Origin: Gaiellales bacterium | GTDB taxonomy: Bacteria; Actinomycetota; Thermoleophilia; Gaiellales; JALYLC01 | Assembly: GCA_035696365.1 (NCBI GenBank) | Contig: DASRQS010000136.1 | Coordinates: 259-64,258 of the forward strand | Direction of reading: 5' to 3' | Length of the DNA: 64,000 bases | In this document: piece after piece, positions 17,886 through 33,681 of the stretch | Numbering within the stretch: the first letter of the stretch is position 1 | How the letters are laid out: each line of letters starts with the position of its first letter | Position numbers and translations under genes: made by a program | Notes under the pieces: model-generated | Told to the model about the DNA's origin: nothing | Seen by the model: the letters and a program-made list of their open reading frames with translations, nothing else | Databases searched by the model: none

Positions 17886-18698
17886 TCAGTTGAAGGTGCG
17901 GCGGAGGAGGACGACGCTGACGCGCCGGTTGCGGCTGCGACCGGTCGCGCTCGCGTTCGACGCTATCGGGTGCTGGTCGCCGTAGCCGGCGGTCGAGAGG
18001 CGGCGGGCGGCGACGCCATGGCCGAGCATGAACTCGAGCACCGCGTTGGCGCGCGCCGAGGACAGCTCCCAGTTCGAGCGGAACTGCGACGACGAGACCG
18101 GGATGTTGTCGGTGTAGCCCTCGATGCGCACGGGGTTGACGATCCCGGTGCGCGTGATCAGGTGCGCCAGCTCGCCGAGCAGCGTCGCCGGGTGCTTGAG
18201 CGCCGCCTGCCCGGAGTCGAACAGCACCGCGTCGGTGAGCACGTGGATCACGAGGCCCCGCTCGTCGATCGTCGTCTTCAGTCGCGCGGACAGGCCGTGC
18301 TGCCGGGCATAGCGATCGACCTGCCGCTGGATGCGGCGCAGGTTGTCGTTGTCCTGCCGCCTCGCCGCGGCCTGCACCGAGGCCTTGATCGAGGTCATCT
18401 TGAAGGCCGGCTGCGAGCTCTGCAGGGGCGGCGTGATGGGCGCGCCCGAGTCGGAGAGCACCGCGCGCCCGCCGGTGAGCACAGCTGCGGGGGCCGGCAG
18501 CACCTTGCCCGAGAAGGCCGAATGCAACGAGACCTTGAGCTGGTCGAACTTGGAGATGTTGACCGACGAGATCGCCCATAACACGAGGAAGAGCGACATC
18601 AGCAGCGTGATCATGTCGCTGTAGGTCAGCAGCCAGCGCTCGTCGACGTGCTCCTCGGGAACCTGGCGCCGCCGGCGATCGTGGGTGCCGGTGCTCAT
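17886..18698 (-). CDS. motB: Flagellar stator protein MotB
   Basis: TM segment with the conserved Asp (WLLTYSDMITLLMSLF) and an OmpA-like C-terminus (RIEGYTDNIPV...NWELSSARANAV). ATGA overlap with motA. Confidence 0.92.
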   Translation of the reverse strand: MSTGTHDRRRRQVPEEHVDERWLLTYSDMITLLMSLFLVLWAISSVNISKFDQLKVSLHSAFSGKVLPAPAAVLTGGRAVLSDSGAPITPPLQSSQPAFKMTSIKASVQAAARRQDNDNLRRIQRQVDRYARQHGLSARLKTTIDERGLVIHVLTDAVLFDSGQAALKHPATLLGELAHLITRTGIVNPVRIEGYTDNIPVSSSQFRSNWELSSARANAVLEFMLGHGVAARRLSTAGYGDQHPIASNASATGRSRNRRVSVVLLRRTFN

Positions 18699-19534: not shown

Positions 19535-19633
19535 GTCGCTCCAGTCCGTTGGAGATCACACATGGCCGTCCGTGGCCACGTTCAGGTAATCGCCCGATGG
19601 CGATCCGTCTTTAGCGCTCCTGAACCCGAGGGC

Positions 19634-19915
19634 TCAGGAATCGTGCGCGGCCGGATCCCTGTACCCGCTCAGGTGCACGACCTGGCCGAGATCTTCGGGA
19701 ACCGCGCCATTGGAGTGCTCGAGCGCCTGCGCGATGATGCCCGCCCGCCAGTCGCGGATCATCGTCAGCACCTCGAGCGGCGTCTCGCTCACGACGAACC
19801 TCGACGAGTTCGTGAGCGCGACGACGGTGTCGGGCGTCGCCTCGATCGTCTGGATCAGGTCCGGGTTGAGGTACAGCGGGAGACCGGGATGGGTGAGTCG
19901 ATGCAGTGGGATCAT
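19634..19915 (-). CDS. flbD: Flagellar protein FlbD
   Basis: MIPLHRLTHPGLPLYLNPDLIQTIEATPDTVVALTNSSRFVVSETPLEV matches the FlbD family. It lies upstream of motA, as in Firmicutes and spirochetes. Confidence 0.85.
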   Translation of the reverse strand: MIPLHRLTHPGLPLYLNPDLIQTIEATPDTVVALTNSSRFVVSETPLEVLTMIRDWRAGIIAQALEHSNGAVPEDLGQVVHLSGYRDPAAHDS

Positions 19916-19930
19916 GCTGTGGGCCGAGTC

Positions 19931-19963
19931 GATGGCGGCGGGCCGAGGGTGCCCGCCGCCATC
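19931..19963 (-). other. Perfect 13-bp stem / 7-nt loop hairpin between flgE and flbD
   Basis: gatggcggcgggc-cgagggt-gcccgccgccatc read directly from the DNA. No U-tract follows on the coding strand. Confidence 0.5.
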
Positions 19964-19966
19964 GGG

Positions 19967-19993
19967 TTATCGGCTAGCCGCGGCCGATATTGA
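19967..19993 (-). promoter_or_regulatory. Candidate sigma-28-type promoter (TCAA-N15-GCCGATAA) upstream of flbD-motAB
   Basis: On the minus strand, TCAA (19993-19990), a 15-nt spacer, then GCCGATAA (19974-19967). It overlaps the flgE stop codon. Confidence 0.35.
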
Positions 19994-20837
19994 CCAGGTT
20001 CTGGAGGAGCTGGTCGGCGGTCGAGATGATCCGGCTGTTGGCCTCGTAGCCGCGCTGGGCGGAGATCATGCGCGTGAACTCCTGCGCGAGGTCGACGTTC
20101 GACATCTCGACCGCGCCCGTCGCAAGCGTGCCCATGCCGGTCGTCGCGTCACCGGGGACCGCGGACACGGCCGCGCCCGAGTTGTTGGAGGCCTGGAACA
20201 GGTTCCCCGAGATGCGCTCGACGCCCGACGGGTTCGGGAACTTGGCCATGCTGATCGTGCCGAGGGTCGTGAGGACGCCGGCCGGGTCGACGTAGGTGAC
20301 CGTGCCGTCGGACTGGATCGAGAGCGACTTGCCGCCGGTCGGGACCGTCAGCTTGGTCTGGTTCGCGGGATTGGCGTAGCCGGCCGGGGTGGCGGGGGTC
20401 GTCGGCAGGTAGCCGATCACGAACTGGCCGTCCTGCGTGACGAGGTTGCCGCCGGCGTCGAGCGTGAAGTTCCCGGCGCGCGTGTAGGAGACGGCGCCCG
20501 TGCCGGCGATCGCCGCGGCGTCGCCGACGCGGAAGAAGCCGTCGCCCTGGATCGCGAGGTCGAGCGGGCTGCCCGTCTGCTGGATCGCGCCGGCATCCAT
20601 GTGGTTCGAGATCGCGCCGAGCTGGACGCCCAGGCCGACCTGGATGGCGTTCGTGCCGCCCATGGCGCCCGACCCGCCGCTGGCGCCGCGCTGTGTCTGG
20701 GAGAGCGCGTCCTTGAAGGTCGTCTGCTCGCTCTTGTAGCCGACCGTGTTGGTGTTGGCGATGTCGTTGGCGACGACGTCGAGCATCGTCTGGTGCACCT
20801 GCAGGCCGCTGATCGCGGCGAACATTCCTCGCATCAT
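19974..20837 (-). CDS. flgE: Flagellar hook protein FlgE (compact, about 287 aa)
   Basis: MMRGMFAAISGLQVHQTMLDVVANDIANTNTVGYK at the N-terminus and VDLAQEFTRMISAQRGYEANSRIISTADQLLQNLVNI at the C-terminus. The upstream part of track ORF 19974..21284 was rejected. Confidence 0.9.
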   Translation of the reverse strand: MMRGMFAAISGLQVHQTMLDVVANDIANTNTVGYKSEQTTFKDALSQTQRGASGGSGAMGGTNAIQVGLGVQLGAISNHMDAGAIQQTGSPLDLAIQGDGFFRVGDAAAIAGTGAVSYTRAGNFTLDAGGNLVTQDGQFVIGYLPTTPATPAGYANPANQTKLTVPTGGKSLSIQSDGTVTYVDPAGVLTTLGTISMAKFPNPSGVERISGNLFQASNNSGAAVSAVPGDATTGMGTLATGAVEMSNVDLAQEFTRMISAQRGYEANSRIISTADQLLQNLVNIGRG

Positions 20838-20904
20838 TTCGGGTTCTCTGCCTTTCCTTGCCGCGACTTCCCCGCAGGGTCCAGCCTTGGCGGTTGACGG
20901 ATTT

Positions 20905-21288
20905 TCAGGAGATGACTGCGCTGTCGATGTTCGTGAACACGTGCTCGCGCATGTGCTCGCGGTCGACCGCGGTGATGACGGTCCGGTTGGGGACGGAGAC
21001 GACGAACGCCGTCTGGTCGACGAGCACGACGGAGTCGCGCGACCCCTTCGCAGCGGCGCGCGAGACGCCCTCGCCGAGGCGCGCCATGACGGCCGCGTCG
21101 ACGCTGATGCCGCGGCGCTCGATGCGCTGCAGGGCGTGCCCGCTGAAGCGGATCGGAGCCGCGTCGAGCTTCTGGGCCAGGACGTCCCCGAAGGACGCGC
21201 CTCCCGGGCGTGCCGGCACGCCGGCAGCCGGCGCCGGAGGGCGCTGACCGGCCTTCGCGATCTGGTCGGCGGCGGTGCGCTCAATCAC
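20905..21288 (-). CDS. Flagellar operon protein of unknown function (TIGR02530-like, between flgD and flgE)
   Basis: FSGHALQRIERRGI ... VVLVDQTAFVVSVPNRTVITAV ... VFTNIDSAVI resembles, from memory, the family found between flgD and flgE in Firmicutes and spirochetes. Confidence 0.6.
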   Translation of the reverse strand: MIERTAADQIAKAGQRPPAPAAGVPARPGGASFGDVLAQKLDAAPIRFSGHALQRIERRGISVDAAVMARLGEGVSRAAAKGSRDSVVLVDQTAFVVSVPNRTVITAVDREHMREHVFTNIDSAVIS

Positions 21289-21694
21289 CGGAGCTCACCC
21301 CGAGCACGTCCTTCAGCGCGACGTTCCCCGCCGCCACCTGGAGGGTCACGCCCCCCTTCGCGGACGAGACCGAGCTGACGGTGCCGGAGGCCGGCGAGCC
21401 GTCCGGGGCCGCGTAGGTGATCTGCTTGCCGATCATCGCGATGCCCTGCGAGACGTCGTTCGAGTGGCTCATCGCGTTCATGGTCGTGCCGAGGCTCGTG
21501 ACGCCCTGGACGGTCGAGAACTGGGCCATCTCGCCCATGAACTGGGACGAGTCGGTCGGCTTCATCGGATCCTGGTACTTGAGCTGCGCGACGAGCAGCA
21601 GCAAGAAGTCGTTCTGCCCGAGCGTCGCGCTGGGATTGGTCGCCTCGACAGTCGGCGTCGCACCGTTCGAGGCGAGGGCGGAGATGGTTGTCAT
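21281..21694 (-). CDS. flgD: Hook capping/assembly protein FlgD
   Basis: LGQNDFLLLLVAQLKYQDPMKPTDSSQFMGEMAQFSTVQG is the FlgD signature. Confidence 0.9.
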   Translation of the reverse strand: MTTISALASNGATPTVEATNPSATLGQNDFLLLLVAQLKYQDPMKPTDSSQFMGEMAQFSTVQGVTSLGTTMNAMSHSNDVSQGIAMIGKQITYAAPDGSPASGTVSSVSSAKGGVTLQVAAGNVALKDVLGVSSGD

Positions 21695-21712
21695 CGGGTC
21701 GCTTTCCTTCCT

Positions 21713-22951
21713 CTATGCGAGGACGTCGATTTGGCTTCCGGCCTCGGGCAGCCGGACGCCCGCAGTGGTCACGGGGTCGTCCTCCTCGGCGCCCGGCTCC
21801 GCGGCGAGGCGCCGGCGGGCCGCCGCTTCCCGGTCGTCCTGCGCGGCCTGCCGACGGCTGCCGTCGGTCACGTCCAGGTTCAGCACCGGCAGGCCCTGCG
21901 CCTCGAGCGAGCGACGCAGCTCGTCGCTCGCGAGCATGAGCGTCTGTGCGGCCTGTGGGTTGTCTGCGCGGACGGTGGCCGAGATCCCGTCCGGGCCGGA
22001 GTGCAGGTGGATCTCGACTGCGCCGAGCTCCTGCGGGTGGAGCAGGATGCGGGCGCTGCCACCGCCCTGCCCGGCCGTGAAGCGGATCGCCACCTGCGTA
22101 GCGTGCGCCAGCTCGCTCAGCCGCACGGGCGCCGCGGACGGCGGCGGGGAAGGAGCGACAGGGCTCGTCGCCGGTGCCGTCTCGACCCGCGCTGCGGCCG
22201 GGGCCAGGGTCGTGGGCGCCGCGACGGTCTGGTCGTTGTCCGCCGGCTGCGGGGCCGTCGGTTGCGGCAACTGCCCGGCGCTGGCCGGTGCGCGCGGCGG
22301 CACCTGCGCAGCGTCTGCCTCGATGTCGGCCTGCGCAGTCGGAGCCGGGGCCGTCGGCAGCGGGGGAGCAGCCGCTGGCTTCGGAGCTGCGTGCGTTGCA
22401 TGCGGCGGGGCGGGATCCGCGCCGGAAGCCGCAGGCTGAGGTGTGGCGGGCGCGGCCGCTGGCTGCGGAGCGGCCGGGGCGGTCGGGTCCTGCACCGGTG
22501 CGGTCGCCGCTTCGCGAACGGTGGCGGCGATCGGCGTCTCGCCGGCGAGCGCGGCTGCAGGGCCGGGCGGCTGCTCGCCGGGGTCCGCGGCCGGGCCGGT
22601 CGACGGGGGGACGACCTGACCCGGCTGCGCCGCTCCGACGTCGGGTGCCTGCGGCTGAAGGGGGGCGGCAACCGCAGACGAGGCCGCGAGCGCCAGGGCG
22701 ACATCCGCCGGGGGGACGGCAGTCGTGGCTCCCTTTTCGTCCTCGTGGCCGGGAGAGTCGCTCTCGGCCTTGGCACCTTCCGCATCGGCGGTCCGGGTGT
22801 CTGATCTGGCGCCGCTCCCAGGCGGCCCGCCGGCTGCCGTGGCAAGCGCTTCGGCGAAGCTCTCGCCCGGCGGTGCACCGCCGGGCGGCGACGCCGGCTC
22901 CGGCGCGATCGCCCCCTCCGGTCCCGTCACCCTCGGCGACGGGGGGGTCAT
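21713..22951 (-). CDS. fliK: Hook-length control protein FliK (Pro/Ala-rich ruler plus Flg_hook domain)
   Basis: C-terminus ARILLHPQELGAVEIHLHSGPDGISATVRADNPQAAQTLMLASDELRRSLEAQGL after a long P/A-rich N-terminal region. The ATG at 22951 lies 9 nt after the SLT stop. The remainder of track ORF 21713..23842 was rejected. Confidence 0.8.
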   Translation of the reverse strand: MTPPSPRVTGPEGAIAPEPASPPGGAPPGESFAEALATAAGGPPGSGARSDTRTADAEGAKAESDSPGHEDEKGATTAVPPADVALALAASSAVAAPLQPQAPDVGAAQPGQVVPPSTGPAADPGEQPPGPAAALAGETPIAATVREAATAPVQDPTAPAAPQPAAAPATPQPAASGADPAPPHATHAAPKPAAAPPLPTAPAPTAQADIEADAAQVPPRAPASAGQLPQPTAPQPADNDQTVAAPTTLAPAAARVETAPATSPVAPSPPPSAAPVRLSELAHATQVAIRFTAGQGGGSARILLHPQELGAVEIHLHSGPDGISATVRADNPQAAQTLMLASDELRRSLEAQGLPVLNLDVTDGSRRQAAQDDREAAARRRLAAEPGAEEDDPVTTAGVRLPEAGSQIDVLA

Positions 22952-22959
22952 GAGCTCGG

Positions 22960-23547
22960 TCAAGGCGCGCTCCTCTCGCTCTTCAAGCGCTCGTAGTGGG
23001 CCAGCACCTTCTGGACGTAGTTCTGGGTCTCGGGGTAGGGCGGCACGCCGCCATACCGCTCGACCGCGCCCGCGCCGGCGTTGTAGGCGGCTAGTGCGCG
23101 CACCGGGTCGCCGCCGAAGCGGGCCAGGTCGTTGCGCAGGTAGCGGGCGCCCCCGTCGATCGACTGCATCGGGTCGTACGGATTGGTGACGCCGAGGCCG
23201 GCCGCGGTGCCCGGCATCAGCTGCATCAGGCCCTGCGCGCCGGCCGAGCTCGTCGCGTGCGGGTTGAAGCCCGACTCCTGCGAGATCACGGCCTGCAGCA
23301 GCAGCGGGTCGACGCCGTAGGTGGCCCCGGCCTTGTTGATCGCGTCGAGGTACGGCGCGGCAGCCGGGTCGCCCGCGGCGCCGGTCGTCGCTGCCGGAGT
23401 GGCCGGCGCTGGGGCGGTCGACGCCTGCGAGAGCGCGGTGGCGAAGGTCGTCGCAGGCGTCGCGGCCTGCACAGGCGCCGCCGGGGCAGCCGGCGGTGGC
23501 GAGGGGACGAGCGACTCGATGCGCGCCAGCACGCTCGCGAGGCTCAC
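22960..23547 (-). CDS. Lytic transglycosylase (SLT domain)
   Basis: [34 protein letters not shown] ... AYNAG. The GTG at 23547 overlaps the fliJ stop (GTGA). The N-terminal part of track ORF 22960..24189 was rejected. Confidence 0.85.
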
Positions 23548-24005
23548 GCCACACCTCCCAGGTGCTGCTTGCGCATCGCCAGGGAGATCTCGTCGCCCGC
23601 GGCGCGCTCGGCGCGCCGGGCGAGATCGTCGTGGACCGAGCGCTGGCGGTCTTCGAGCCGATCCAGCGTCTCGCGATCGCGCGCGGCCGAGGCCAGCTGA
23701 CTCCGTCCGATCGCCACGTGTCCCGCCTGCGCCTCGGCGCGCATCCGCGCCTCGCCGAGCTCGCGCTCGCAGCGCTCGAGGTAGGCCTGCCGCACGGCGA
23801 GATCCCTCGCGCTCGAGATCCCGGGCGACGCCGCGCAGGCACCGGTGAGGACGGCCTCGGCGCTGTCGAGCTCCCCGCGGAGCTGCGCCGCGCGATCGAG
23901 CTCGTGGGCGAGCTGGCGCATGGCGACGAGCTCCGTGTGCTTGCGGAGCGTCCTGATGGACTCGAGTTTGAATGCGAAGCGGCGTCCGGTCATCGGCAGG
24001 GGCAC
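23544..24005 (-). CDS. fliJ: FliJ-like flagellar export chaperone (coiled coil)
   Basis: About 150-aa helical protein ([32 protein letters not shown]...) at the head of the fliK-flgD-flgE operon. The start is either GTG 24005 or ATG 23993. Confidence 0.6.
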
Positions 24006-24021
24006 TCGTGTGCCCGGCTGG

Positions 24022-24048
24022 TAATCGGCAGCGCGGTTCCGCTATTGA
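24022..24048 (-). promoter_or_regulatory. Candidate sigma-28-type promoter (TCAA-N15-GCCGATTA) upstream of fliJ
   Basis: On the minus strand, TCAA (24048-24045), a 15-nt spacer, then GCCGATTA (24029-24022). It lies 17 nt upstream of GTG 24005. Confidence 0.3.
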
Positions 24049-24157
24049 GGCCGCCGCGCGGCCACGGCTCGGCCGGCCCGTTTGCGGCGGTCCGGGCGTG
24101 CGTGGACTCGCCGCCCGGGCGGCGCTATCGTGGGCGCGTCTACAGGAGGTGAGAGCC

Positions 24158-24982
24158 GTGTCGTCCGGCCCCTCGGATTCCGAGCTCAAGTCGCGCCATC
24201 GCGCGATGTGGGCCTCCGGTGACTACCCATCCATGGTCGAGACCTTCCTGCTGCCGCTCGGGCCGCGGCTCGTCGACGCCTGCGGGATCGGTCCCGCTAT
24301 GCGCGTTCTGGATGTCGCCGCCGGCACTGGCAACGCCTCGCTCCCGGCCGCGCAGCGCGGAGCAAGCGTGACCGCCAGCGACCTGACGCCGGAGCTGCTG
24401 GAGGCGGGTCGCCGGCGCGCGGACGCCGAGGGTCTCGCGCTCGAATGGGCCGAAGGTGACGCCGAGCAGCTGCCGTTCGAGAACGGGTCGTTCGACGTCG
24501 TGATGTCGTCGATCGGCGCGATGTTCGCGCCCCACCACCAGGACGTCGCGGACGAGCTCGACCGCGTGTGTCGCCCGGGCGGCACGATCGGGCTGCTCAG
24601 CTGGACGCCCGAGGGCATGATCGGCGCGCTCTTCCGCACCATGGGGCCGTTCGCGCCGGCGCCGCCGCCCGGCGCGCAGCCTGCTCCGCTGTGGGGCAGC
24701 GAGGAGCACGTGCGCGAGCTGCTCGGCGACCGGGTCGACTTCGGCACGCTCGATCGGGAGATGCTGGAGATCACCGCCTTCGAGCATCCGCACGACTACG
24801 GCGAGCATTTCAAGCAGCGCTACGGACCGACGATCGCCGCCCAGGCCAACGCGCGCCGCAACGAGCGCGAGGCCGAGTTCGAGCAGGCGCTCGACGCGTT
24901 CTGCGACGAATGGAACTGCGGAACGCCGGAGAGCGCGCGCTTCATGAAGGAGTACCTGCTCGCGGTCGGCACCCGGGTGTGA
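24158..24982 (+). CDS. Class I SAM-dependent methyltransferase (type 11)
   Basis: AGGAGG at 24144-24149, then GTG 24158. Motifs [26 protein letters not shown] and [10 protein letters not shown]. Confidence 0.85.
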
Positions 24983-24984
24983 CG

Positions 24985-26781
24985 TCAGCGTTCGAGTCCG
25001 CGGGGCAACCGCCTCCGCAGGCGGTACATCCTGAGACGTCCGTAGTCCTTCGCGGTTGGCATGTGGCCGACGTAGTCGCAGCCGAGCTCCCGGCGCTGGG
25101 CGAGCTCCAGGGCCGCCGCGAACTGCTCGGTCACGTAGACCGTGCCGGGTGGGGTCACGGGCTCGATCCGCGCGGTGCGGCTGACGTGCGACCCGGCGAA
25201 CACGCGCACGCCCAGGACGGGATCCTCGATGGGGAACACGGGCCCGATGTGCAGGCCCATTCGCAGCACGAGCTGGTCTTCCAATCCGAGCGTGCGCATG
25301 TCGGTCGCCGACATCGCATCCTGCAACTCGAGCGCGCAGTTGGCGGCATGCACGGTGTCGGTCAGGACGACGTACAGCGCGTCGCCCCAGGTGTTCCGGT
25401 GCTCGATCACCTCGTCGTAGCGCGCGAGCACCGCGGCGAAAGCCCCCAGGACGCGCTGCACGACCGCTGGCACCTGCTCGTCCGCGAGCCTCGAGAAGCC
25501 CTTGACGTCGGCGAAGAGCATCGCCCGCATGACCCGTCCGGACGGGTCCGTGACGCCTCCGTTCGGGCCCGGCCGGGGCGCCGGGGGGTCTTCGACCGGA
25601 ATCACGGAGACGGCCTGCCCCGCAGCGCGCCAGGTGGCGATGTCCTGCGCGGTGCCGGCCTCGCCGTCGCCGGGATCGGGGTTCCCGTCCCACACGGCGA
25701 GTTGCCGCACATCGGCGTCCAGATAGCGCGCGCGCAGCAGGGCGAGCCCCATGGCGAGCTCACCGGCGTAGCGGTAGAGGGCGTCGTCGGGCACGAACGC
25801 GTCGTCCGTCGCGTAGGTGACGGTGAACGCCGCGCTCAGGCAGCGGTGGAAGCGCTCCACCCAGGCGGAGCCCGAAGGGGCGACCGAGCTCTCGATGAAC
25901 GCATCGCGAGCGAACGGCAGCACGACATGGAGCTCGGTTCCGCGCGCGAGCAAGGCCTCGGCGCACAGGATGTCCGCGCCGCTCGCCAGCGATCCGTACG
26001 CGTAGCGCGGCGTGTCGCGCGCCAACTCCGCCTGAATGGCATCCGAGACGCCCTGCTCGGCCTCGGCCGGAAACCGCCCGGACGCCCCGACGGCGGCGAT
26101 CCGATGACCGCAGAAATGCGCCACGCCGGGCCCGGCGAGGATGCCGATGATCTCGGCATCCATGCCGGTGAGCGCGCACACGAGGCGCAGCTGCCGGCGG
26201 GTCGTCGCCAGCGATCCGTAGTCGCCACCATGGGTGGCGGCCGCCCGTTCGAGCGCGTCGCGCGCGGCAGGCTCGTCTCCGAGCAGGAGCCTCGCCTCGG
26301 CCTCGGTGGCAGCGGCGTAGTACGAGTCCTCGCCGCTTCGATCGAGCACGGCGAGGGCCGTGCGGGCGAGCTCATGCGCCCTCGCCGGATCGCCGGCGAC
26401 GAGGCTCAGCGTCGCGGCGTTGATCGCCGGGTAGTAGCCGCCTGTGCGGCCATGGATCGCTTCGTACAGATCGCGCGCGCGCACCGCCCCGGCGCGCCGT
26501 TCCCATGGTGGGGCCTCGAGCGCGAGGTCCTTGGCGATGCGCGCCCGGAGTGCTGCGATGTCTTCCTCTTCCGAAGCGCTCAATCCATACTGCAGGAAGC
26601 GCTGCGCCGCCTCTCCCGTGGCGCCGGCGCGCGCGAGCGCAAGCACCGCGCGGTGCTTCAGCCAGAGATCGTCGGGACGCTCGGCGAGCCCCTGCTCCGC
26701 GAGATCGACTGCGGTCAGCAGCTCGCCGCGCCGCTCTGCCCCCTTGACGGCCTCGAGCCAGTCGGTGGCCGGCCGATTCAC
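24985..26781 (-). CDS. Three-module signalling protein: TPR-like (DUF4071-like) N-terminus, SLOG (DprA/LOG-like) centre, class III nucleotide cyclase C-terminus
   Basis: GGYYPAINAATL; YGSLASGADILCAEALLARGTELHVVLP and LAVWDG..GEAGTAQD; cyclase blocks MLFADVKGFS, NTWGDALYVV, RMGLHIGPV and GSHVSRTARIE. Confidence 0.8.
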   Translation of the reverse strand: MNRPATDWLEAVKGAERRGELLTAVDLAEQGLAERPDDLWLKHRAVLALARAGATGEAAQRFLQYGLSASEEEDIAALRARIAKDLALEAPPWERRAGAVRARDLYEAIHGRTGGYYPAINAATLSLVAGDPARAHELARTALAVLDRSGEDSYYAAATEAEARLLLGDEPAARDALERAAATHGGDYGSLATTRRQLRLVCALTGMDAEIIGILAGPGVAHFCGHRIAAVGASGRFPAEAEQGVSDAIQAELARDTPRYAYGSLASGADILCAEALLARGTELHVVLPFARDAFIESSVAPSGSAWVERFHRCLSAAFTVTYATDDAFVPDDALYRYAGELAMGLALLRARYLDADVRQLAVWDGNPDPGDGEAGTAQDIATWRAAGQAVSVIPVEDPPAPRPGPNGGVTDPSGRVMRAMLFADVKGFSRLADEQVPAVVQRVLGAFAAVLARYDEVIEHRNTWGDALYVVLTDTVHAANCALELQDAMSATDMRTLGLEDQLVLRMGLHIGPVFPIEDPVLGVRVFAGSHVSRTARIEPVTPPGTVYVTEQFAAALELAQRRELGCDYVGHMPTAKDYGRLRMYRLRRRLPRGLER

Positions 26782-26860
26782 GCCACCGCCGCGCCGGCGA
26801 CGGGCCGCGCGTGCGGCAGCGGCAGCTTCAGCATCGGCTGAGTGTACGCAGGCCGGAGGC

Positions 26861-28348
26861 TTAGCCGAACTGGTGGTGCCAGAAGTCGTAGAAGGACGCG
26901 ATTCCGGCGTGCACGCCGGACTGCTGCTCGGCCTTGACGAACATGTTGGCCGAGACGTCCGTCCACACGATCACGGAGCAGGTCGTCCCGTGAACGTTGG
27001 TCAGCTTCATCTTCGCGACGAGATCACACTGCCCGGGGGCCTGATAGCAGGCGAAGCGACCGCTGACGGGTCCCATCACGCCGCCGCTCGTCTCGTGGCT
27101 CCACGGACCTTCGCCTCTCCAGTGCGTGCGGTCGCAGCCGCCCGTCGCGGCCTTCAGTTGCGGGTCGGGATTGCCGCCGCGCGCCGCCACCTCGCCGGGA
27201 CCATGGAGCTTGTAGATCGGCTGGAGGTGCGCATTGTCGATGAAGCGATCGAGATGCACCAGGGTGCGGCCGTGCTTCGGATCGTTGTAGTCGCAGTTGA
27301 TGGTCGCCACACCGCCGGCGTGCTCGGTGTTCGCGAAGTTGCAGGCGCTACGGCGAATCACCTTGGGGATCGAGAGCCAGAGCTTGGCCTGGTCGGGATC
27401 GACGCCCGCGGGCACGGCGGCCTTGTCGGTGGCGGTCGTCGTGCCGCCCGCGTTCCCCGCAACGGTGCCCGGAGTGGAGGTCGGCGTGTTCGAGGGGCTC
27501 GCCGAGTTGTCATTGCCGAGCTGGTAGGCAGCGAACAGCGCCAACGCGACGAGGGCCACGACGCCGAGGCCGGCCAGCCCGAGCAACCAGCGCGGAGCGT
27601 CCGAGAGCCCACCGGACTTGCGTCCGCCTGAGCCACCGCCGGCGCCGCCTTGCGCGGGCCGGGGCGAGCCGCCAACGGGGCCGGCACTGGCCGAGCGCGG
27701 CGCGCTTGCCATACCGGCCGACGAGTGGGCCGGCGATTGCAACGCGGGGGCGACGCTCTCCTCGGTCGAAGGCTCCTGGGTCTGACCCGCTTCGTCCGTG
27801 TTGCGAACGTCCCCCGGCATGGCGGCCGGAACACCTGCCGGCGCGCCGGCCTCGAGTGGCAGCGCCGCTTCTGCGTTGCCTTCGCCCGCGCCGATGCGTT
27901 CGAGCAGGTTCAGGAGCCGCGAGACGTCGTATTGCCAGCGCGGACCGTCGGCCATCTCGACGGCGTTGCGAAGCGCGAGCGGCGCCAGCGCTCCCGGAAG
28001 GTCGTCGAGGACAGGCATGACCGCTCCGCCGACCAGTGCAGGGACGACGCGGATATTGCCGCGCCCGAGTGCCGTCTCCACTTCGAGACGCACGTAGTCG
28101 TCCACGTGGTTGAGACGGCGCTCGCCTCGGGTGTCGGCAGCCGTCAGCCAGCGCGGGCCGATCATGACGAACAGCACGTCGCAGCACGACACCGCGGCCT
28201 CGATCGCGTGCTTGAACTCGACACCGATGTCAATCGTGTCGACGTCCATGAAGACGTTGTCCGGGCCGAGCCTGCCGGCCAGGGCGTCGTAGAGGCGGCC
28301 GGCCTGACCGCTCGTGTCCTCGCGCCGGTAGCTGATGAAGACACGCAT
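26861..28348 (-). CDS. Membrane-anchored TIR-domain protein (cytoplasmic TIR, single TM, extracytoplasmic Cys-rich domain)
   Basis: MRVFISYRREDTSGQAGRLYDAL ... DYVRLEVETAL (TIR_2-like). A/G/P-rich linker, then TM WLLGLAGLGVVALVALALFAAY, then a 180-aa C-terminal domain with six Cys. Confidence 0.85.
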   Translation of the reverse strand: MRVFISYRREDTSGQAGRLYDALAGRLGPDNVFMDVDTIDIGVEFKHAIEAAVSCCDVLFVMIGPRWLTAADTRGERRLNHVDDYVRLEVETALGRGNIRVVPALVGGAVMPVLDDLPGALAPLALRNAVEMADGPRWQYDVSRLLNLLERIGAGEGNAEAALPLEAGAPAGVPAAMPGDVRNTDEAGQTQEPSTEESVAPALQSPAHSSAGMASAPRSASAGPVGGSPRPAQGGAGGGSGGRKSGGLSDAPRWLLGLAGLGVVALVALALFAAYQLGNDNSASPSNTPTSTPGTVAGNAGGTTTATDKAAVPAGVDPDQAKLWLSIPKVIRRSACNFANTEHAGGVATINCDYNDPKHGRTLVHLDRFIDNAHLQPIYKLHGPGEVAARGGNPDPQLKAATGGCDRTHWRGEGPWSHETSGGVMGPVSGRFACYQAPGQCDLVAKMKLTNVHGTTCSVIVWTDVSANMFVKAEQQSGVHAGIASFYDFWHHQFG

Positions 28349-28596
28349 CGTTCAGCCCACGCGACCGGCCGGCGCACTCACGCCCATGCCTCGAGCCGCC
28401 ACGCCCGTCCGCCCGGCAACCCGCATCTCGAGACCGAATCTGCCTTCACTCACGCGGGTCCGCGCTCCGACCGTCACCGGCTGACTCGCCGGGATCATCC
28501 GTGGATGGTAGCCCGCGCGACTGCCCGTGTCCAGAGCGGCGGAGCCTCCATTGATTCGCGTGCCGGATCCTCGCGGAATCGTTTGCCTATCGGTTC

Positions 28597-28620
28597 AGAG
28601 CTCATTCTGAAATGAGCTCT
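28597..28620 (-). terminator. 9-bp perfect hairpin abutting the stop of the small secreted ORF
   Basis: agagctcat-tctgaa-atgagctct read directly from the DNA. It is AT-rich relative to its surroundings. Confidence 0.4.
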
Positions 28621-28832
28621 CAGGCGATCCGATGAGGCCAGGCTGCCATGGCCAGGGCCCGCTCGCCCGGCGAAATGTACGTGCGTCCGCCGACGGGCTT
28701 GCGGTTTGCCTGGGCGAGAGACACCGTGCTGTGGCGAATGGCGGGCGTCCGCAGCTGACCGGCGTCAGCGGCTGGCACGGCGAGCGCGCTCAGCAGCAGC
28801 GCACATGCGATGGTGTGGATGCGACGGTTCAT
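28620..28832 (-). CDS. Small secreted protein (hypothetical, 70 aa)
   Basis: Signal peptide MNRRIHTIACALLLSALAVPAADA with an AxA cleavage site. It sits between the STAND regulator and the TIR gene on the same strand. Confidence 0.45.
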   Translation of the reverse strand: MNRRIHTIACALLLSALAVPAADAGQLRTPAIRHSTVSLAQANRKPVGGRTYISPGERALAMAAWPHRIA

Positions 28833-28978
28833 CGGTGCTCCGTTTCCTGACCGGGGCCGTCCGATACGGCCCGACCAGTCGAGCGTGCGCGGTCGCGCTT
28901 GCGACGGGCTATAGGCGCGCTTGCTGCCGCTTGGGAACGTCCTCGCGCCGTGCCCACTCGGCGCCGCGCGAACCGTCG

Positions 28979-31900
28979 TTAGACGGACGCGATCGCTTGG
29001 TCGATCGTGAGCGTTGCCGCTGCGGCGCGAGCCACGGCGAACCGCTTCGCGGCGTCCGGATCGAGTGCGCCGAGCGCGTGCTCGTAGCGGGCCTGAGGAC
29101 TGGGGTCGAAGCGCATCCCGAGTCGCTCCGCCAATCGCTCGCCGGCGCTCCAGAGGGCTCCGGCCGCCTCGGCCTCCCCGCCGGCGCCGGCCACGGCCGC
29201 AAGCCCGAGCAGGCAGTGCGCGGCGACAGCCTGGTACGGAGTGTCGCGTGAGGCCAGAAGGGCGGAGCGGTAGAGCTCCTCGGCTGCGTCGAGGTTGCCG
29301 GCACTCAACTCGAGGTCGGCCAGGGTCTGTGTCGTTCGAGCCACATTTCGGTCGTCACCTGCCTCGCGCGCGACCGTCAGTGCGCGGCCCAGCAGGTCGC
29401 GCGCCGACGGGACGGCACGTCGATCGAGTGCCAATTCGCCGAGGAACCTCAACCGCCCCGCCATCGCTCCTCTGTCGTTCAGCGCGGTGAAGAGCTCGAG
29501 CGACTCCTCGGCTGCCGCCCGCGCCTCCCGATTCCGCCCTCGCTCGCCGGCAAGCTCGGCGAAACCACGCAGCGCCTCGGCCAGCCCGGCCTCGTCGCCG
29601 AGCTCGCGCAGACTCTGGATGCTTTCCTCGTAGCGTTGCTCGGCGACGTCGACGTTGCCGGCGAGAGCGCTCAGGTGGGCGCCGGCCGCGAGCGCGCGCG
29701 CTCGCCCCTCCGGGAGCGCCGGCGGCGCGAGTGCGAGAACCCCGTCGAACCAGCGCGCGCCTTCCTGGTACTGGCCTCGGCGGCGCCAGAAGATCTCGAG
29801 TGCGGTCGCCAGACGCAAGGCGACGGTGCTCTCCTGTTGTGCCACAGCCCAGCTCAGGGCGGCGCGGAAATTGTCCTGCTCGGCGACCAATGCCCGGAAC
29901 CACAGCTCCTGCTCGGGACCGCGAAGCTGCCGTTGAGCCGTCTCCGCCAGCGCGACGAAGTGCTCGGCGAGACGGCGGTGGACGTCGTCCCTCTCGTCGC
30001 CCTCCTCCAGCCGCTCCCAGGCAAACTCGCGGATGGTCTCGAGCAGCCAGAAGCGCTCGCCAGTTCGCTGCAGGAGGCTCTTCTCGACGAGAGCCTGCAG
30101 CGTGTCGAGATCGGCTGCGCAAATGGCCTCGGCTGCCTCGTTGGTGCAGCCGCCGGCGAACACGGCCAGTCGAGCGAGAAGCTGCTGTTCGTCCGGTGCA
30201 AGCAGGTCGAACGACCAGGCGATGCTCGCGCGCAGTGTGTTCTGGCGTGGTTCTCCGCCTCGCCTCGCCTTGAGTAGATCGAGGCGCTCGGCGAGCCGCC
30301 CGAGCATCTGTGCCGGCGAGAGCACGTTCGTGCGCGCAGCGGCGAGCTCGATCGCAAGCGGCAGGCTGTCGAGGCGCCGGCAAAGCTCGCGGACGTCGTC
30401 GCTCGGACCGATGCGGGCGCGCGCGCAGAACAGCGCGACGGCCTCCGGCTCCGCAAGCGCGGGCACGCGGTAGGCGATTTCGCCCTCGACGAGCAGCAGC
30501 TCGCGGCTGGTGACGAGGATTTTCAAGTGTGGTCCGGCTTCGAGCAGTTCCGTCACCAGGGGTGCAGCAGCGAGCACGTGCTCGAAGTTGTCCAATACGA
30601 GCAGGGTCCTCCGCTCGCGTAGTGCGTCGCCGAGCTTCCCCGCATCGGTGTTCGCCAGCGCGTCCGCGATCGCGGGCCCGACCAGGGCGGCTTCAGCGAG
30701 CGGCGCGAGCGCGACGAAGTACGCGCCGTCGCGAAATTCCCGCCAGAGCTCGTGGGCGACCTCGAGCGCGAGTCGCGTCTTTCCGCTGCCACCCGCGCCC
30801 GTCAGCGTCAGAAGACGCGTGTCGGCATCTCGTAGGAGCGCCACGACTTCCGAGACCTCTCTCTCCCGGCCGACGAAGGAGCTCGTGGGACGCCGCAACG
30901 AGATGTTCCCGGTTCCTCGCAGAGGCGGGAAGGACTCGTCGCCGAGCTGGAAGACCCGCACGGGATCCCCGATGTCCCTGAGCCGCTGCTCGCCGAGATC
31001 GCTGACCGCCGTCTGGACGAGGTCGCGGGTGGCCTGCGAGATGAGGACCTGGCCGCCCGACGCGACGGCGCAGATCCGCGCTGCGCGGTGCACGTCCATG
31101 CCGACGTAGCCCTCGTCCGTCAGCACCGGCTCGCCGGTATGCACGCCCATGCGTACCCGCAGTGGCCCGTCCGCGAGCGCGCGCTGCGCGTCGAGCGCGG
31201 CGGCGACAGCGTCAGTCGCGGTGGCGAAGACTGCGAAGAACGCGTCGCCTTGGGTGTCCACCTCCACGCCGGCGTGCGTCTCGAGCGCCTCACGCAGTCG
31301 CTGGCGGTGCTCGGCGAGCGCATTGGCGTAGCTTGCGCCCAGCGTTTCCAGCACGCGGGTCGACCCTTCGACGTCGCAAAACAGTAGCGTCACGGTACCT
31401 TGCGGCAAGTCACGACGCGGTGCGCGCGCCGCTGCCGCCGCCTCCGGTTCGAGCTGGGGGTCATGGTTGAGGATCGCCCGTTCCAGCCGCTGAAGCTCCT
31501 CCGTGGGCTCGAGTCCGAGCGTGTCGCCCAGCAAGCGATGCGTCTGCTGGTACAGCTCGAGCGCCTCGGCCTGGCGGCCGGCGCGGTAGAGCGCGAGCAT
31601 CAGTTGGGCGCGCAGCCGTTCGCGCAGCGGGTGCTCGGCGATCAGCGCCCTCAGCTCGCCGATCAGCTGCGTCTCGCGGCCGAGCTCGAGGTCGGCCGCG
31701 ATGCGCTCCTCGAGCGCAGCAACGCGCGCCTCCTCCAGGCGGCCGATGGCCTCTGCCGCGAACCGGTCATAGGTGAAGTCCGCGAGCGGCGGTCCGCGCC
31801 AGAGCGCGAGCGCCTGCGCGAGGGCCGTCGCTCGGGCCATCGGCTCGGAGCTCCGCGCCTCGCGCAGCACCGTCTCGAATCGCTCCGCGTCCAACTCACC

Positions 31901-32173
31901 CGGCCTCACACGTAGCACGTAGCCGGGTGGGCGGGTGAACAACACGTCCTCACCGAGGGCCTTGCGCAGTGCTGAGACGTACACGTGAACACTCGTGCGC
32001 GCTGCGGGCGGCGCCTGGCCGTCCCAGACCAGATCGATCAGGCGATCGACCGACACCACCTCGTTCGGGTGCAGCAGCAGCACACCGAGCAGCGATCGCT
32101 GGTTGCCACCGCCGATCACCACGGAAGTACCGTCGGCGAGCACTTCCAGCGGGCCCAGAATGCCGAATTCCAT
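28979..32173 (-). CDS. SARP (OmpR-wHTH plus BTAD) - class III cyclase - NB-ARC/STAND ATPase - TPR regulator
   Basis: N-terminus MEFGILGPLEV...RSLLGVLLLHPNEVVSVDRLIDLVW and BTAD; cyclase TLLFCDVEGST..DTQGDAFFAVF..RMGVHTGEP..GMDVHRAARI; P-loop LTGAGGSGKTRLA; long TPR-like tail. Confidence 0.9.
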   Translation of the reverse strand: MEFGILGPLEVLADGTSVVIGGGNQRSLLGVLLLHPNEVVSVDRLIDLVWDGQAPPAARTSVHVYVSALRKALGEDVLFTRPPGYVLRVRPGELDAERFETVLREARSSEPMARATALAQALALWRGPPLADFTYDRFAAEAIGRLEEARVAALEERIAADLELGRETQLIGELRALIAEHPLRERLRAQLMLALYRAGRQAEALELYQQTHRLLGDTLGLEPTEELQRLERAILNHDPQLEPEAAAAARAPRRDLPQGTVTLLFCDVEGSTRVLETLGASYANALAEHRQRLREALETHAGVEVDTQGDAFFAVFATATDAVAAALDAQRALADGPLRVRMGVHTGEPVLTDEGYVGMDVHRAARICAVASGGQVLISQATRDLVQTAVSDLGEQRLRDIGDPVRVFQLGDESFPPLRGTGNISLRRPTSSFVGREREVSEVVALLRDADTRLLTLTGAGGSGKTRLALEVAHELWREFRDGAYFVALAPLAEAALVGPAIADALANTDAGKLGDALRERRTLLVLDNFEHVLAAAPLVTELLEAGPHLKILVTSRELLLVEGEIAYRVPALAEPEAVALFCARARIGPSDDVRELCRRLDSLPLAIELAAARTNVLSPAQMLGRLAERLDLLKARRGGEPRQNTLRASIAWSFDLLAPDEQQLLARLAVFAGGCTNEAAEAICAADLDTLQALVEKSLLQRTGERFWLLETIREFAWERLEEGDERDDVHRRLAEHFVALAETAQRQLRGPEQELWFRALVAEQDNFRAALSWAVAQQESTVALRLATALEIFWRRRGQYQEGARWFDGVLALAPPALPEGRARALAAGAHLSALAGNVDVAEQRYEESIQSLRELGDEAGLAEALRGFAELAGERGRNREARAAAEESLELFTALNDRGAMAGRLRFLGELALDRRAVPSARDLLGRALTVAREAGDDRNVARTTQTLADLELSAGNLDAAEELYRSALLASRDTPYQAVAAHCLLGLAAVAGAGGEAEAAGALWSAGERLAERLGMRFDPSPQARYEHALGALDPDAAKRFAVARAAAATLTIDQAIASV

Positions 32174-32366
32174 CAGCCGCGTCGCGCGACAGCGCGGGAC
32201 GCATTCCTCGCCTTCCTACATGACGTGCTTACTGTATCGCTGCGATCCCGCCTTCATCGCGTCTGGAAGCGCCGTCTTCGCGCCACGGTTCGGACGACTC
32301 CCGGCACGTTGACCGCGCTCCGTCGCGTCTGTAGGCTCGCGGTCCAGCCGAAGAGGGACAACGCGT

Positions 32367-32864
32367 ATGCGGGCACGGCCTTCTCTTCTCGCCACCGGAG
32401 GCGTGGGCTTGTTCTTGGCCCTGGGCTTCGCGTCGCAGGCTGGCGGCACCAGCCAGCAGTCGGCAGCACCGTGGAACAGCGTCGTGCCATCCCACAGGGT
32501 GGTCAGGGGCGTGGTCGGAGGCGGATGCGTCGCGCTCAAGGTCGGTGACGCGTGCGCAGCGACCGCGTCGCTTTTCCCGAGCGCGGCGAGCAATGTCAAC
32601 GAAGCCGCCATGGGTGTTCAGGGCGGCACTCTCGAGAACCCGCATTGCGTGGGAGACGCCGAGCGTCCGGACCCGGCACCCGGCTATCTGTGCATTTATC
32701 CGAACGAGCCCGAGCTCGTCAATGTCGCAAAGACCGGGGAAGGGCTTCTCAGCGCCGAGCCGCACCCGATCTCCAACGGTCGGCGCGGCTTCAAGCTGAT
32801 CTGGAGCGCCCAAGCACCTGGCAGCACCCAGCTCTACGCAGTCTGGGCATACCGTGCGCCGTAG
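32367..32864 (+). CDS. Secreted protein of unknown function
   Basis: GAGGGA ribosome-binding site and signal-like N-terminus MRARPSLLATGGVGLFLALGFASQAGG. The end overlaps the pstS start. Confidence 0.5.
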   Translation: MRARPSLLATGGVGLFLALGFASQAGGTSQQSAAPWNSVVPSHRVVRGVVGGGCVALKVGDACAATASLFPSAASNVNEAAMGVQGGTLENPHCVGDAERPDPAPGYLCIYPNEPELVNVAKTGEGLLSAEPHPISNGRRGFKLIWSAQAPGSTQLYAVWAYRAP

Positions 32865-33681
32865 GTTCTCCGCCCTGACGGCGCTCGCCGCGGCGCTCCT
32901 GGTGCCCGCGCTGCTTGCTGTGCCCCGCGCCCAGGCCTCCACGGTCATCAGGAGCGGCGGCGGATCGGTTTTCCAACTGATCGTCTCCGCCCTCGCGATC
33001 GACTACGGCAAGGTGCAGAAGGACGTCAGCATCACGGTCATCGGCGGGGGCTCGGGAGCGGGCATCGCCGGGGTCGCTGCGGGTACGTTGGACATCGGCC
33101 TCTCCTCGCGCGACCAATTGCCCAGCGATCCGCCCGGGCTGACGTTCATCCCCGTTGCGCGTGAGGGTTTCGCCATCGTGGTCAACCCGCACAACCCGAT
33201 TAGGAGCCTGACACACGCGCAGATCAAGGCCATCCTGACAGGCCAGACGGTCACGTGGGGCGCCGTGGGCTGGGCCGCGGGCGGGCCGATCCAGGTCTAC
33301 TCGCGCATCCCTGCGTCTGGCTCGTACGTCAACTGCAAGCGGTTTTTCACGGACGACCTCGAGTTCGCGAGCAACGCTCCGCAGACGCCTTCCCACGGCA
33401 TCACCAGGGTCGACGTGGCGCGAGACCGGCACTCGATCGCATGCATTGCGCTCTCGTACCTGACGACCGCCCGCGGCACGATCAAAGGGCTCGCGGTCAA
33501 CGGTCTGGCGCCGACGCGCCGCAACGCCTTCGCTGGACGCTACCCATACCGGAGCGCGCTCTGGTTCGTCACGAAAGGCCCGCCGAGCGGGCCGGTGGCG
33601 GACTACATCAAGTGGGTTCGCTCGACGGGCGTCCAATGCGGCCTGATCGCCACATATGTCCTGCCGCTGGGGCGGTGCTGA
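32854..33681 (+). CDS. pstS: Phosphate ABC transporter substrate-binding protein (PstS family)
   Basis: Signal peptide, then ITVIGGGSGAGIAGVAAGTLDIGLSSRD ... FAIVVNPHNP..LT..QIKAILTG, the PBP_like_2 pattern. Confidence 0.8.
   Translation: MRRRFSALTALAAALLVPALLAVPRAQASTVIRSGGGSVFQLIVSALAIDYGKVQKDVSITVIGGGSGAGIAGVAAGTLDIGLSSRDQLPSDPPGLTFIPVAREGFAIVVNPHNPIRSLTHAQIKAILTGQTVTWGAVGWAAGGPIQVYSRIPASGSYVNCKRFFTDDLEFASNAPQTPSHGITRVDVARDRHSIACIALSYLTTARGTIKGLAVNGLAPTRRNAFAGRYPYRSALWFVTKGPPSGPVADYIKWVRSTGVQCGLIATYVLPLGRC

Follow-up and report, generated by a model that had tools for sequence, protein, structure and literature searches.

A two-gene module was analysed in a 64,000-nucleotide stretch of DNA from a Gaiellales bacterium (contig DASRQS010000136.1), which is referred to below as the window. 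One gene encodes a TIR-domain protein with a predicted transmembrane (TM) helix and ectodomain, and the other encodes a protein composed of a TPR-S domain, a SLOG-fold domain and a class III nucleotidyl cyclase domain (the cyclase protein). An earlier account made from the letters of the DNA alone, the sequence-only reading, had described two open reading frames (ORFs) on the same strand, 79 nt apart, and had interpreted them as a Thoeris-like TIR protein whose signal is read by a SLOG domain fused to a cyclase. The two ORFs lie exactly as described, on the minus strand, and the quoted motifs are all present in the translations. The locus comprises:

24985 to 26781, minus strand: gene of the TPR-S/SLOG/class III cyclase protein, 598 aa, GTG start; proposed signal reader and second-messenger generator
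26782 to 26860, minus strand: 79 nt separating the TIR and cyclase genes (spacer)
26861 to 28348, minus strand: gene of the TIR-TM-ectodomain protein, 495 aa, ATG start; proposed membrane receptor and signal generator
28505 to 28533, minus strand: sigma-70-like promoter match, 157 nt upstream of the TIR start

No terminator-like site was found in 24700-29100, and a spacer free of such a site is consistent with co-transcription of the TIR and cyclase genes. The promoter-like site, which is the only one in the region, agrees with the consensus at 9 of 12 positions (0.2 such sites expected in shuffled sequences) and is a consensus match only. The G+C content of the window is approximately 70%.

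The TIR protein is divided into three parts, with a low-complexity linker between the TIR domain and a single hydrophobic helix that precedes a C-terminal domain of 205 aa:

27899 to 28348, minus strand: TIR domain, approximately aa 1-150, with the codon of the candidate catalytic residue E89 at 28082-28084
27527 to 27589, minus strand: single transmembrane helix, aa 254-274, WLLGLAGLGVVALVALALFAA, Kyte-Doolittle mean of 2.41 over 21 residues
26864 to 27478, minus strand: extracytoplasmic C-terminal domain (predicted), aa 291-495, 6 Cys; proposed ligand-sensing part

The TIR assignment of the protein's opening is borne out by Pfam, in which TIR_2 matches aa 3-133 (E 4e-10, 40.7 bits, cut-off 28; Pfam matches are counted here against the curated cut-offs). 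The translation contains MRVFISYRREDT and DYVRLEVETAL, and the candidate catalytic Glu that had been pointed out in the latter motif is E89. Together with F4, Y7 and D35 (window numbering), E89 is invariant in all 72 cyclase-linked TIR domains from the related loci described below. A profile built from these domains has its best matches in Cat1, Caenorhabditis elegans TIR-1, human SARM1 and AbTIR (E 2e-15 to 1e-12), which are NAD+-cleaving TIR domains. In the alignment, E89 falls on the Glu of WVHKEIVTAL in SARM1, the catalytic E642, and likewise on the Glu of the corresponding TIR-1 and Cat1 motifs. By sequence, the TIR domain resembles NADase TIR domains most closely, and NADase activity is predicted.

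Lys and Arg residues flank the window TM helix asymmetrically, with three before and none after, and the same positive-inside bias, seen in 61 of the 67 partner TIR proteins, puts the TIR domain on the cytoplasmic side and the C-terminus outside. The TIR protein is thus predicted to be a single-pass membrane protein with a cytoplasmic TIR domain, a TM helix and an extracytoplasmic domain. The Thoeris-like character that had been ascribed to it holds for the catalytic Glu, but the protein is not ThsB-like in its membrane anchoring and extracytoplasmic domain. Because of the single TM helix and the outer domain, the input looks receptor-like. Full-length orthologues of the TIR protein are 53-72% identical and keep the C-terminal domain, of which the AlphaFold2 model is poor (predicted local distance difference test score (pLDDT) of 54.8).

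The TIR paralogues closest to the window TIR (approximately 50-55% identity) directly follow SLATT genes, which is the arrangement of type VII Thoeris, and a product of the cyclic ADP-ribose (cADPR) type is therefore the best guess for the window TIR. Two such paralogues on Actinomycetota metagenome contigs (L084 7492-9188 and L085 7525-9284) have multi-pass membrane C-termini and overlap the preceding SLATT_1/DUF4231 genes by 4 nt.

The window ectodomain, with its TM helix and the juxtamembrane motif SGGLSDAPRWL (26864-27589), recurs behind Hanks-type Ser/Thr kinase domains (P0265 and P0270). Since the same ectodomain is found on TIR and on kinase, it behaves as a sensor module that swaps cytoplasmic output domains, and these proteins point to a recent exchange of kinase and TIR as the output of one sensor. 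The TIR protein resembles receptor Ser/Thr kinases in its predicted topology, in this interchangeability, and in the propeller ectodomain of most of its relatives; Mycobacterium tuberculosis PknD is a kinase-TM-beta-propeller protein. A large family of proteins of approximately 340-530 aa (P0271-P0360) joins the window's TIR subtype and a transmembrane segment to varied C-terminal parts (FGE-sulfatase/lectin-like, SnoaL, PDZ and Cys-rich domains), and gives the impression of a TIR membrane-receptor repertoire that has diversified in soil Actinomycetota.

The cyclase protein has a three-module architecture:

26404 to 26715, minus strand: TPR-S domain, Pfam aa 23-126, in a helical region that extends to approximately aa 205
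25597 to 26139, minus strand: SLOG-fold Rossmannoid domain, approximately aa 215-395
25063 to 25524, minus strand: class III nucleotidyl cyclase domain, aa 420-573

Its translation contains GGYYPAINAATL, YGSLASGADILCAEALLARGTELHVVLP and LAVWDG...GEAGTAQD. The sequence-only reading had likened the helical N-terminus to DUF4071; the corresponding family PF13281 (MAP3K_TRAF_bd, DUF4071) is indeed recorded on several homologues, but the best family is one that it overlooked, TPR-S (PF20308; E 3.6e-10, 40.8 bits, cut-off 27.6). Y117 and N121 are conserved residues of this domain. We take PF20308 to be the TPR of Burroughs and Aravind, who in 2020 reportedly predicted that it senses NAD+-derived signals.

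The AlphaFold2 model of the central region (approximately aa 205-410, from a 70-sequence alignment; pLDDT of 92.3, predicted template-modelling score of 0.87) has an alternating strand-helix Rossmannoid topology. In a Foldseek search against the Protein Data Bank (PDB), the top match is YpsA (PDB entry 2nx2; E 1.6e-6, TM-scores 0.58/0.66), followed by DprA from three species, ShosA and LOG enzymes, with the ADPR-binding TRPM2 chanzyme and MoCo carrier proteins lower down. SLOG members make up 11 of the 12 matches at E <= 1e-3. On the evidence of this model the central region is a SLOG fold, as had been proposed from motifs; of the three structures that had been named for comparison, DprA and LOG were matched, but ThsA is not within the top 50. 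No Pfam family matches aa 130-415 at E <= 0.1, and against PDB sequences the SLOG region gives no phmmer match, its profile giving only chance matches near E = 1.

The family is recognized by a signature of its own (HxxGH ... GSLAxGAD ... LHVVLPF ... QxxxWDG ... AGTxxD). The domain shares with the YpsA/SLOG superfamily (PMC6459960), and with the ADPR-binding SLOG-like domain of TRPM2, a Rossmannoid fold. It has no sequence-level Pfam match to the described SLOG families (such as LOG, DprA, YpsA, TPALS and LSDAT), and HxxGH, LHVVLPF and QxxxWDG are particular to it. The invariant G268-A-D270, located after strand 2 of the model, resembles at the motif level the substrate-binding GxD/E signature (G53/E55 in YpsA) of the YpsA clade, whose members have a proposed connection to NAD/ADP-ribose (PMC6459960). 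Similarly, an acidic residue is kept in AGTxxD380 at the position of the LOG motif GTxxE, as judged by sequence motif. SLOG members are predicted to be sensors or nucleotide-processing enzymes (PMC6459960), and the SLOG domain of ThsA binds 3'cADPR.

When 1.84 billion representatives were searched with a profile of the SLOG domain, 5492 clusters (50% identity) were recovered, of which 1023 reach E <= 1e-30. The dominant architecture is TPR-S + SLOG + cyclase in a protein of approximately 600 aa, and TPR-S precedes the SLOG domain almost always. Other architectures are SLOG + cyclase, TPR-S + SLOG, a standalone form of approximately 185 aa, and SARP + cNMP_binding + TPR-S + SLOG, where cNMP denotes a cyclic mononucleotide. 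A homologue search with the central region only returned mainly gene fragments and was useful just for a few of the standalone versions. In the large fusions (P0406, P0486, P0418 and P0410), one chain unites a transcription factor (the SARP DNA-binding module), a sensor (TPR-S and the same SLOG domain) and, except in P0410, a cNMP reader (the cNMP-binding domain). The fusions that carry cNMP_binding provide independent support for a cNMP link to TPR-S/SLOG.

The C-terminal class III cyclase was correctly recognized from sequence, Pfam Guanylate_cyc matching aa 420-573 (E 8e-9, 35.7 bits against a cut-off of 21.9). In a sequence search of the PDB the top match is 3mr7 (E 2e-5), and 1ybt is also matched; both are relatives of Rv1900c. 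The metal-binding residues D425 (in FADVKGF) and D467 (in WGDA) and the transition-state R538 are invariant. The substrate-defining Lys position is occupied by an invariant Asn, N463, the position of its Asp partner by V/A527, and that of the transition-state Asn by S534, within the invariant HVSRTARIEP; neither the Lys/Asp pair that defines adenylate cyclases nor the Glu/Cys pair of guanylate cyclases is present. The active M. tuberculosis cyclase Rv1900c also has Asn at the Lys position. Such strict conservation of an altered site argues for a functional cyclase site, with a product that is not predictable from the residues.

The cyclase protein has more than 2148 homologues of the same architecture. 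GTDB genomes of 207 species encode it; they belong to Solirubrobacterales, other Thermoleophilia, Gaiellales and Acidimicrobiales, and identity is 53-77% across Thermoleophilia and Acidimicrobiia. Gene neighbourhoods were compared at 80 loci, each from the genome of a different species, and partner TIRs were located with a hidden Markov model (HMM) built from neighbouring TIRs of the family. The dominant clustered neighbour encodes a protein of approximately 945 aa with TIR_2 (E 1e-21 to 1e-27) followed by WD40 beta-propellers; the usual partner architecture is TIR-TM-WD40. At 55 loci the cyclase gene has a TIR ORF less than 600 bp away, and at 12 the nearest one is at a distance of 600 bp to 3 kb, so that a TIR gene within 3 kb accompanies the cyclase gene in 67 of 80 species genomes, in agreement with the neighbour conservation expected for a functional pair. 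At four further loci the distance is 3-6 kb, and at nine, three of them on short contigs, no TIR ORF was found near the cyclase gene. The neighbours at these TIR-less loci are ordinary (glycosyltransferase, sulfatase, UvrB and RPE65). Among the 55 adjacent pairs, 23 are divergent, 15 co-directional with the TIR gene upstream, 10 convergent and 7 co-directional with it downstream. Pfam TIR_2 matches all 72 partner N-termini, nearly all partners have one strong TM helix approximately 200 residues from the N-terminus, and the only Pfam domains in the TIR proteins are TIR and WD40, with no cNMP-binding domain.

A tblastn search with the window TIR had suggested that the pair is not conserved, with TIRs in approximately 5 of 80 loci, the closest relatives. 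This result was a false negative: neighbour clustering, Pfam and the family HMM show that the partners are divergent TIRs. In the clade of the window (the window, L001-L004 and L035), this position is taken by another TIR subtype with another ectodomain, which suggests, on comparison of the sequences, that the TIR partner was exchanged while the pairing was retained. The ectodomain is the fastest-evolving part: its sequences share on average 28% identity in pairwise comparison, against 48% for the TIR and 62% for the cyclase. Divergences of cyclase and TIR are correlated in a mirror-tree comparison (r = 0.28; Mantel test, 0 of 999 permutations).

The pair is kept in many soil Actinomycetota, in two classes, and outside defence islands. 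The sequence-only reading had raised the possibility of a defence-island setting, which the neighbourhoods contradict: neither the window nor the related loci show a defence-island or mobile-element context, and the neighbours are housekeeping, flagellar, methyltransferase and ABC transporter genes.

Variant arrangements occur at a few loci. A soluble TIR lies beside the cyclase gene in L058 (11876-16911), followed by SIR2_2 and then nSTAND1-WD40, and in L011 (12857-18154), followed by nSTAND1-WD40; these TIRs could provide a different, cytoplasmic input, or a separate conflict system could have settled beside the cyclase gene. Two TIR-TM-WD40 genes per cyclase gene, in tandem or flanking it, are found in L023 (3260-9244), L026 (7099-9978 and 13457-16342) and L041 (11857-17667), an arrangement compatible with several receptors feeding one transducer.

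Genes for cNMP-binding proteins concentrate around the pair. ORFs of this kind lie within 10 kb of it at 41 of 80 loci, and at the 61 loci with full flanks their numbers in successive 2-kb bins are 18, 10, 5, 4 and 0. The types are Crp-type regulators (the commonest, at 17 loci), MFS transporters with a cNMP-binding domain (MFS-cNMP) and ABC exporters with cNMP-binding domains. In the window, two ORFs of the module lie apart from the pair:

38428 to 40089, minus strand: MFS transporter with a C-terminal cNMP-binding domain (Pfam MFS_1 and cNMP_binding, E 3.7e-16); candidate reader of the cyclase product
38168 to 38335, minus strand: small charged ORF of 56 aa (tblastn 89% identity to L001 ORF 7787-7957)

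In the closest relatives, L001 and L004, an orthologue of the MFS-cNMP gene (85% identical) directly adjoins the TIR gene, and the contiguous order is MFS-cNMP, 56-aa ORF, TIR and cyclase. The transporter that the sequence-only reading had singled out from 10 kb away as a possible reader is thus real and is a neighbour of the TIR gene in these genomes. In the window, the TIR gene is parted from the 56-aa ORF and the MFS-cNMP gene by a block of approximately 10 kb (28349-38167) that looks like an insertion into the module. The block contains a gene (28979-32173) for a regulator composed of SARP (Trans_reg_C + BTAD), a class III cyclase, NB-ARC and TPR, as well as a PBP_like_2 binding protein and two ABC ATPases (a phosphate-type ABC system). 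This regulator is the adjacent STAND cyclase that had been noted as a second cyclase: it is real but not conserved with the pair, and it was rejected as a component since it is absent between MFS-cNMP and TIR in L001 and L004. A clear homologue lies near the cyclase gene at only one or two other loci.

The 56-aa ORF is rich in His, Glu, Lys and Asp and has an internal repeat, DDVQAHRKEH occurring twice in the L001 orthologue. A few kb or less from the cyclase gene, several loci (L013 6644-9829, L024 3633-6809, L015 2187-5447 and L080 3189-6275) encode ABC exporters of the bacteriocin-exporter type, which have a C39 peptidase domain and two cNMP-binding domains at the N-terminus; this recurrence hints at cNMP-gated peptide export.

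Whereas domain identities, SLOG fold, topology bias, catalytic-Glu conservation, gene neighbourhood and enrichment of cNMP-binding neighbours are observed, we infer the biochemical steps, what the two messengers are, which way the signal runs and whether the role is physiological sensing or immunity. The reading to which we give moderate confidence is a module of two genes, often with a third, in which a membrane TIR receptor produces an NAD+-derived nucleotide for a cytoplasmic sensor-cyclase. The extracytoplasmic domain of the TIR protein, a Cys-containing domain of approximately 205 aa in the window and a WD40 beta-propeller in most relatives, would bind an external or envelope cue and cluster the receptor. 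The clustered cytoplasmic TIR domains would then form an active NAD+ glycohydrolase/cyclase, releasing an ADP-ribose-derived signal that is most plausibly canonical cADPR or an isomer. The signal would be bound by TPR-S, by SLOG or by both, favouring a productive dimer of the class III cyclase and so the synthesis of a cyclic mononucleotide. Local readers would take up this second messenger: Crp-type regulators, the MFS-cNMP transporter or cNMP-gated ABC exporters.

A more specific version, which we put forward tentatively, makes the module a bacterial counterpart of Toll-like receptors (TLRs) for ordinary transmembrane sensing, with interchangeable ectodomains, an enzymatic TIR and a cascade of a cADPR-like messenger followed by a cNMP. 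Under it, the TPR-S/SLOG protein would be an adenylate or guanylate cyclase whose product controls Crp-type regulators and cNMP-gated transporters. The likeness to animal Toll-like and IL-1 receptors is one of predicted topology only: an ectodomain, a single TM helix and a cytoplasmic signalling domain. The TIR domains of TLRs, in contrast, are scaffolds without the catalytic Glu that is invariant here, and the ectodomains are unrelated in sequence.

Several observations weigh against the receptor-to-cyclase reading. The SLOG assignment is by modelled fold only, with neither a Pfam or PDB SLOG sequence-profile match nor ThsA in the top 50. The sequence-only reading had made the SLOG domain the reader of the TIR signal; the fold stands, but TPR-S may be the sensor instead of, or as well as, SLOG, either candidate could bind the signal, and SLOG could be an enzyme. 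The absence of the canonical Lys/Asp pair and of the transition-state Asn makes cyclase activity, and its product, uncertain. Charge bias is the sole basis for predicting that the C-terminal domains lie outside. The cyclase gene stands without a nearby TIR at 9 of 80 loci. The modest correlation of divergences supports co-inheritance and is weak evidence for co-evolution. Finally, TIR and TPR-S are otherwise known together from anti-phage Thoeris, and by analogy the module may have an immune role.

The last point leads to the alternative that survives best, an anti-phage Thoeris variant near type VIII, which we regard as possible though doubtful. Infection would trigger cADPR synthesis by the TIR, TPR-S would sense it, and the cyclase would raise a cNMP alarm acting on gated effectors (the transporters or exporters) or on a transcriptional defence programme. 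Type VIII Thoeris combines TIR with TPR-S and is activated by cADPR: its effector ThsI (CMP hydrolase + TPR) and the SLATT effector ThsH of type VII respond to canonical cADPR from their TIRs (bioRxiv 10.64898/2025.12.03.692087). According to that preprint, the TPR of ThsI is the Aravind-group TPR predicted to take part in TIR signalling (bioRxiv 10.64898/2025.12.03.692087). In type VIII and in the window alike, the TIR gene adjoins a gene for a protein with this TPR and a Rossmannoid nucleotide-handling domain. In type VIII, however, the effector is a growth-arresting enzyme of the CMP-hydrolase type, for which there is no Pfam match here; here the Rossmannoid domain is SLOG, TPR-S is N-terminal, the output is a class III cyclase, the TIR is predicted to be membrane-bound with an ectodomain, and no defence island surrounds the pair.

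The type VII arrangement of the nearest TIR paralogues beside SLATT genes also favours a Thoeris variant and suggests shared product chemistry, but the window TIR is not paired with a SLATT protein, and one TM helix and an ectodomain make up its C-terminal region. In type I Thoeris (ThsB with ThsA, a SIR2-SLOG protein), SLOG reads a TIR-made ADPR-derived signal and activates the fused enzyme, as may be the case here; in contrast to type I, there is no SIR2 match (Pfam) and no ThsA match (PADLOC), the SLOG domain is nearest to YpsA and accompanied by an extra TPR-S, and the output is a predicted second messenger rather than NAD+ depletion. PADLOC and NCBIfam give weak matches to ThsB and to the type III Thoeris protein ThcB4, in the TIR portion only. 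The soluble TIRs of L058 and L011, with SIR2_2 and/or nSTAND1-WD40, have typical conflict-system companions, and the rapid divergence of the ectodomain would also suit defence.

The catalytic-Glu TIR and the conserved TPR-S/SLOG partner are shared with Thoeris in general, but no cell-killing or arresting effector (NADase, pore, nucleotide depletion or protease) is present, the class III cyclase being the only catalytic output domain by Pfam. Against an anti-phage role, the commonest local readers are Crp-type regulators and not killing effectors, and the predicted position of the sensing domains outside the cell would be odd for detecting intracellular phage replication. The surroundings are not those of a defence island or mobile element, and 53-77% cyclase identity in 207 species genomes looks like long-term retention rather than the patchy turnover of defence genes. 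A systematic survey of TIRs in defence islands has tables without a cyclase or PF20308 partner. Such a partner of TIR was found neither in the literature searched nor in the supplementary tables of that survey, the Aravind-group papers that define SLOG and TPR-S lying outside the search; literature searches for TPR-S returned nothing. An earlier, purely computational listing of the TPR-S/SLOG/cyclase architecture, or of its TIR neighbour, in the Aravind-group supplements is possible.

Two further alternatives both appear unlikely. In one, the TIR is a protein scaffold of the TLR/MyD88 kind that touches TPR-S of the cyclase protein directly, with no messenger, and SLOG binds an unrelated nucleotide as a metabolic input. 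TPR repeats often mediate protein-protein contacts, and the receptor topology is like that of TLRs. BcTir/BcTpr, a TIR/TPR pair in anti-phage defence, has moreover been reported to act as a complex whose TIR is catalytically inactive (bioRxiv 10.1101/2023.05.26.542521). BcTir, however, has lost the catalytic Glu (bioRxiv 10.1101/2023.05.26.542521), which in the partner TIRs here is invariant in 72 of 72 along with three more residues; the profile is nearest to NADase TIRs, and divergent or convergent adjacency suits a diffusible signal as well as a complex.

In the other, SLOG is an enzyme, either a LOG-like N-glycosidase or a nucleotide-processing domain, that converts or destroys the TIR product, leaving TPR-S as the sole sensor. 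LOG enzymes are among the fold matches, nucleotide processing is one of the two roles predicted for the superfamily (PMC6459960), and ThsI and BcTpr join TPR-S to a Rossmannoid domain of the glycosidase type. The acidic residue of AGTxxD380 and the GxD/E-like G268-A-D270 would suit an enzyme, but this equivalence is drawn from sequence rather than from residue-level structural alignment, and ThsA is an example of SLOG as a pure receptor.

A reverse flow of the Pycsar/Pucsar kind, in which the TPR-S/SLOG protein senses, the cyclase makes a cNMP and the TIR protein is an NAD+-depleting effector, is very improbable: although the locus likewise combines a class III-type cyclase, a TIR protein and a predicted cNMP messenger, cyclase-made cGMP activates a TIR effector in known systems, the Pucsar order being cyclase to TIR with a cNMP-binding domain on the TIR (bioRxiv 10.64898/2026.08.12.744502), and PADLOC gives a marginal PycC match (E 0.0055 over 95 residues), the TIR proteins here lack a cNMP-binding domain, their large variable ectodomain has the look of an input rather than an effector, the cNMP-binding domains encoded nearby are on other proteins (Crp regulators and MFS or ABC transporters, unlike Pycsar), and the TPR-S and SLOG sensors on the cyclase are associated with NAD derivatives, which fits a place downstream of the TIR.

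Taken as a whole, the sequence-only interpretation is partly supported; the SLOG fold, neighbour conservation and aligned Glu, the computational points on which it could have failed, were all checked and all found. In Thoeris types I to VIII, the known forms of bacterial TIR signalling, the last component is an effector by which the infected cell is killed or its growth stopped. In the receptor-to-cyclase module, the conserved TIR partner is a second-messenger cyclase surrounded by cNMP receptors, which would link NAD+-derived and cyclic-nucleotide messengers in series. The TIR would form the cytoplasmic head of a membrane receptor, with the topology of an animal Toll-like receptor but with a TIR predicted to be catalytic. 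If so, bacterial TIR signalling would extend from phage defence to transmembrane sensing, or an immune module would be seen to have been adapted; a ligand and a role would be assigned to the TPR-S and SLOG modules; and a large unstudied family would be defined, with more than 2000 proteins in 207 species of soil Actinomycetota. If the Toll-like version is true, a cascade of two second messengers, cADPR-like and then cNMP, would exist in a prokaryote. The system lends itself to direct testing, since its elements are two soluble domains, a single small molecule and an enzymatic activity that can be read out.

Apart from the pair, the genes of the window include a methyltransferase, the STAND regulator, transport genes and a subtilase (Pfam); no restriction, CRISPR, integrase or other defence genes are among them. 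The module is adjoined by a flagellar/motility cluster (18695-24189) with MotA, a FlgE-like hook protein, FlgD and FliJ, plus an SLT transglycosylase. A long ORF within it (21713-23842) is Pro/Ala-rich and may encode a hook-length or scaffold protein.

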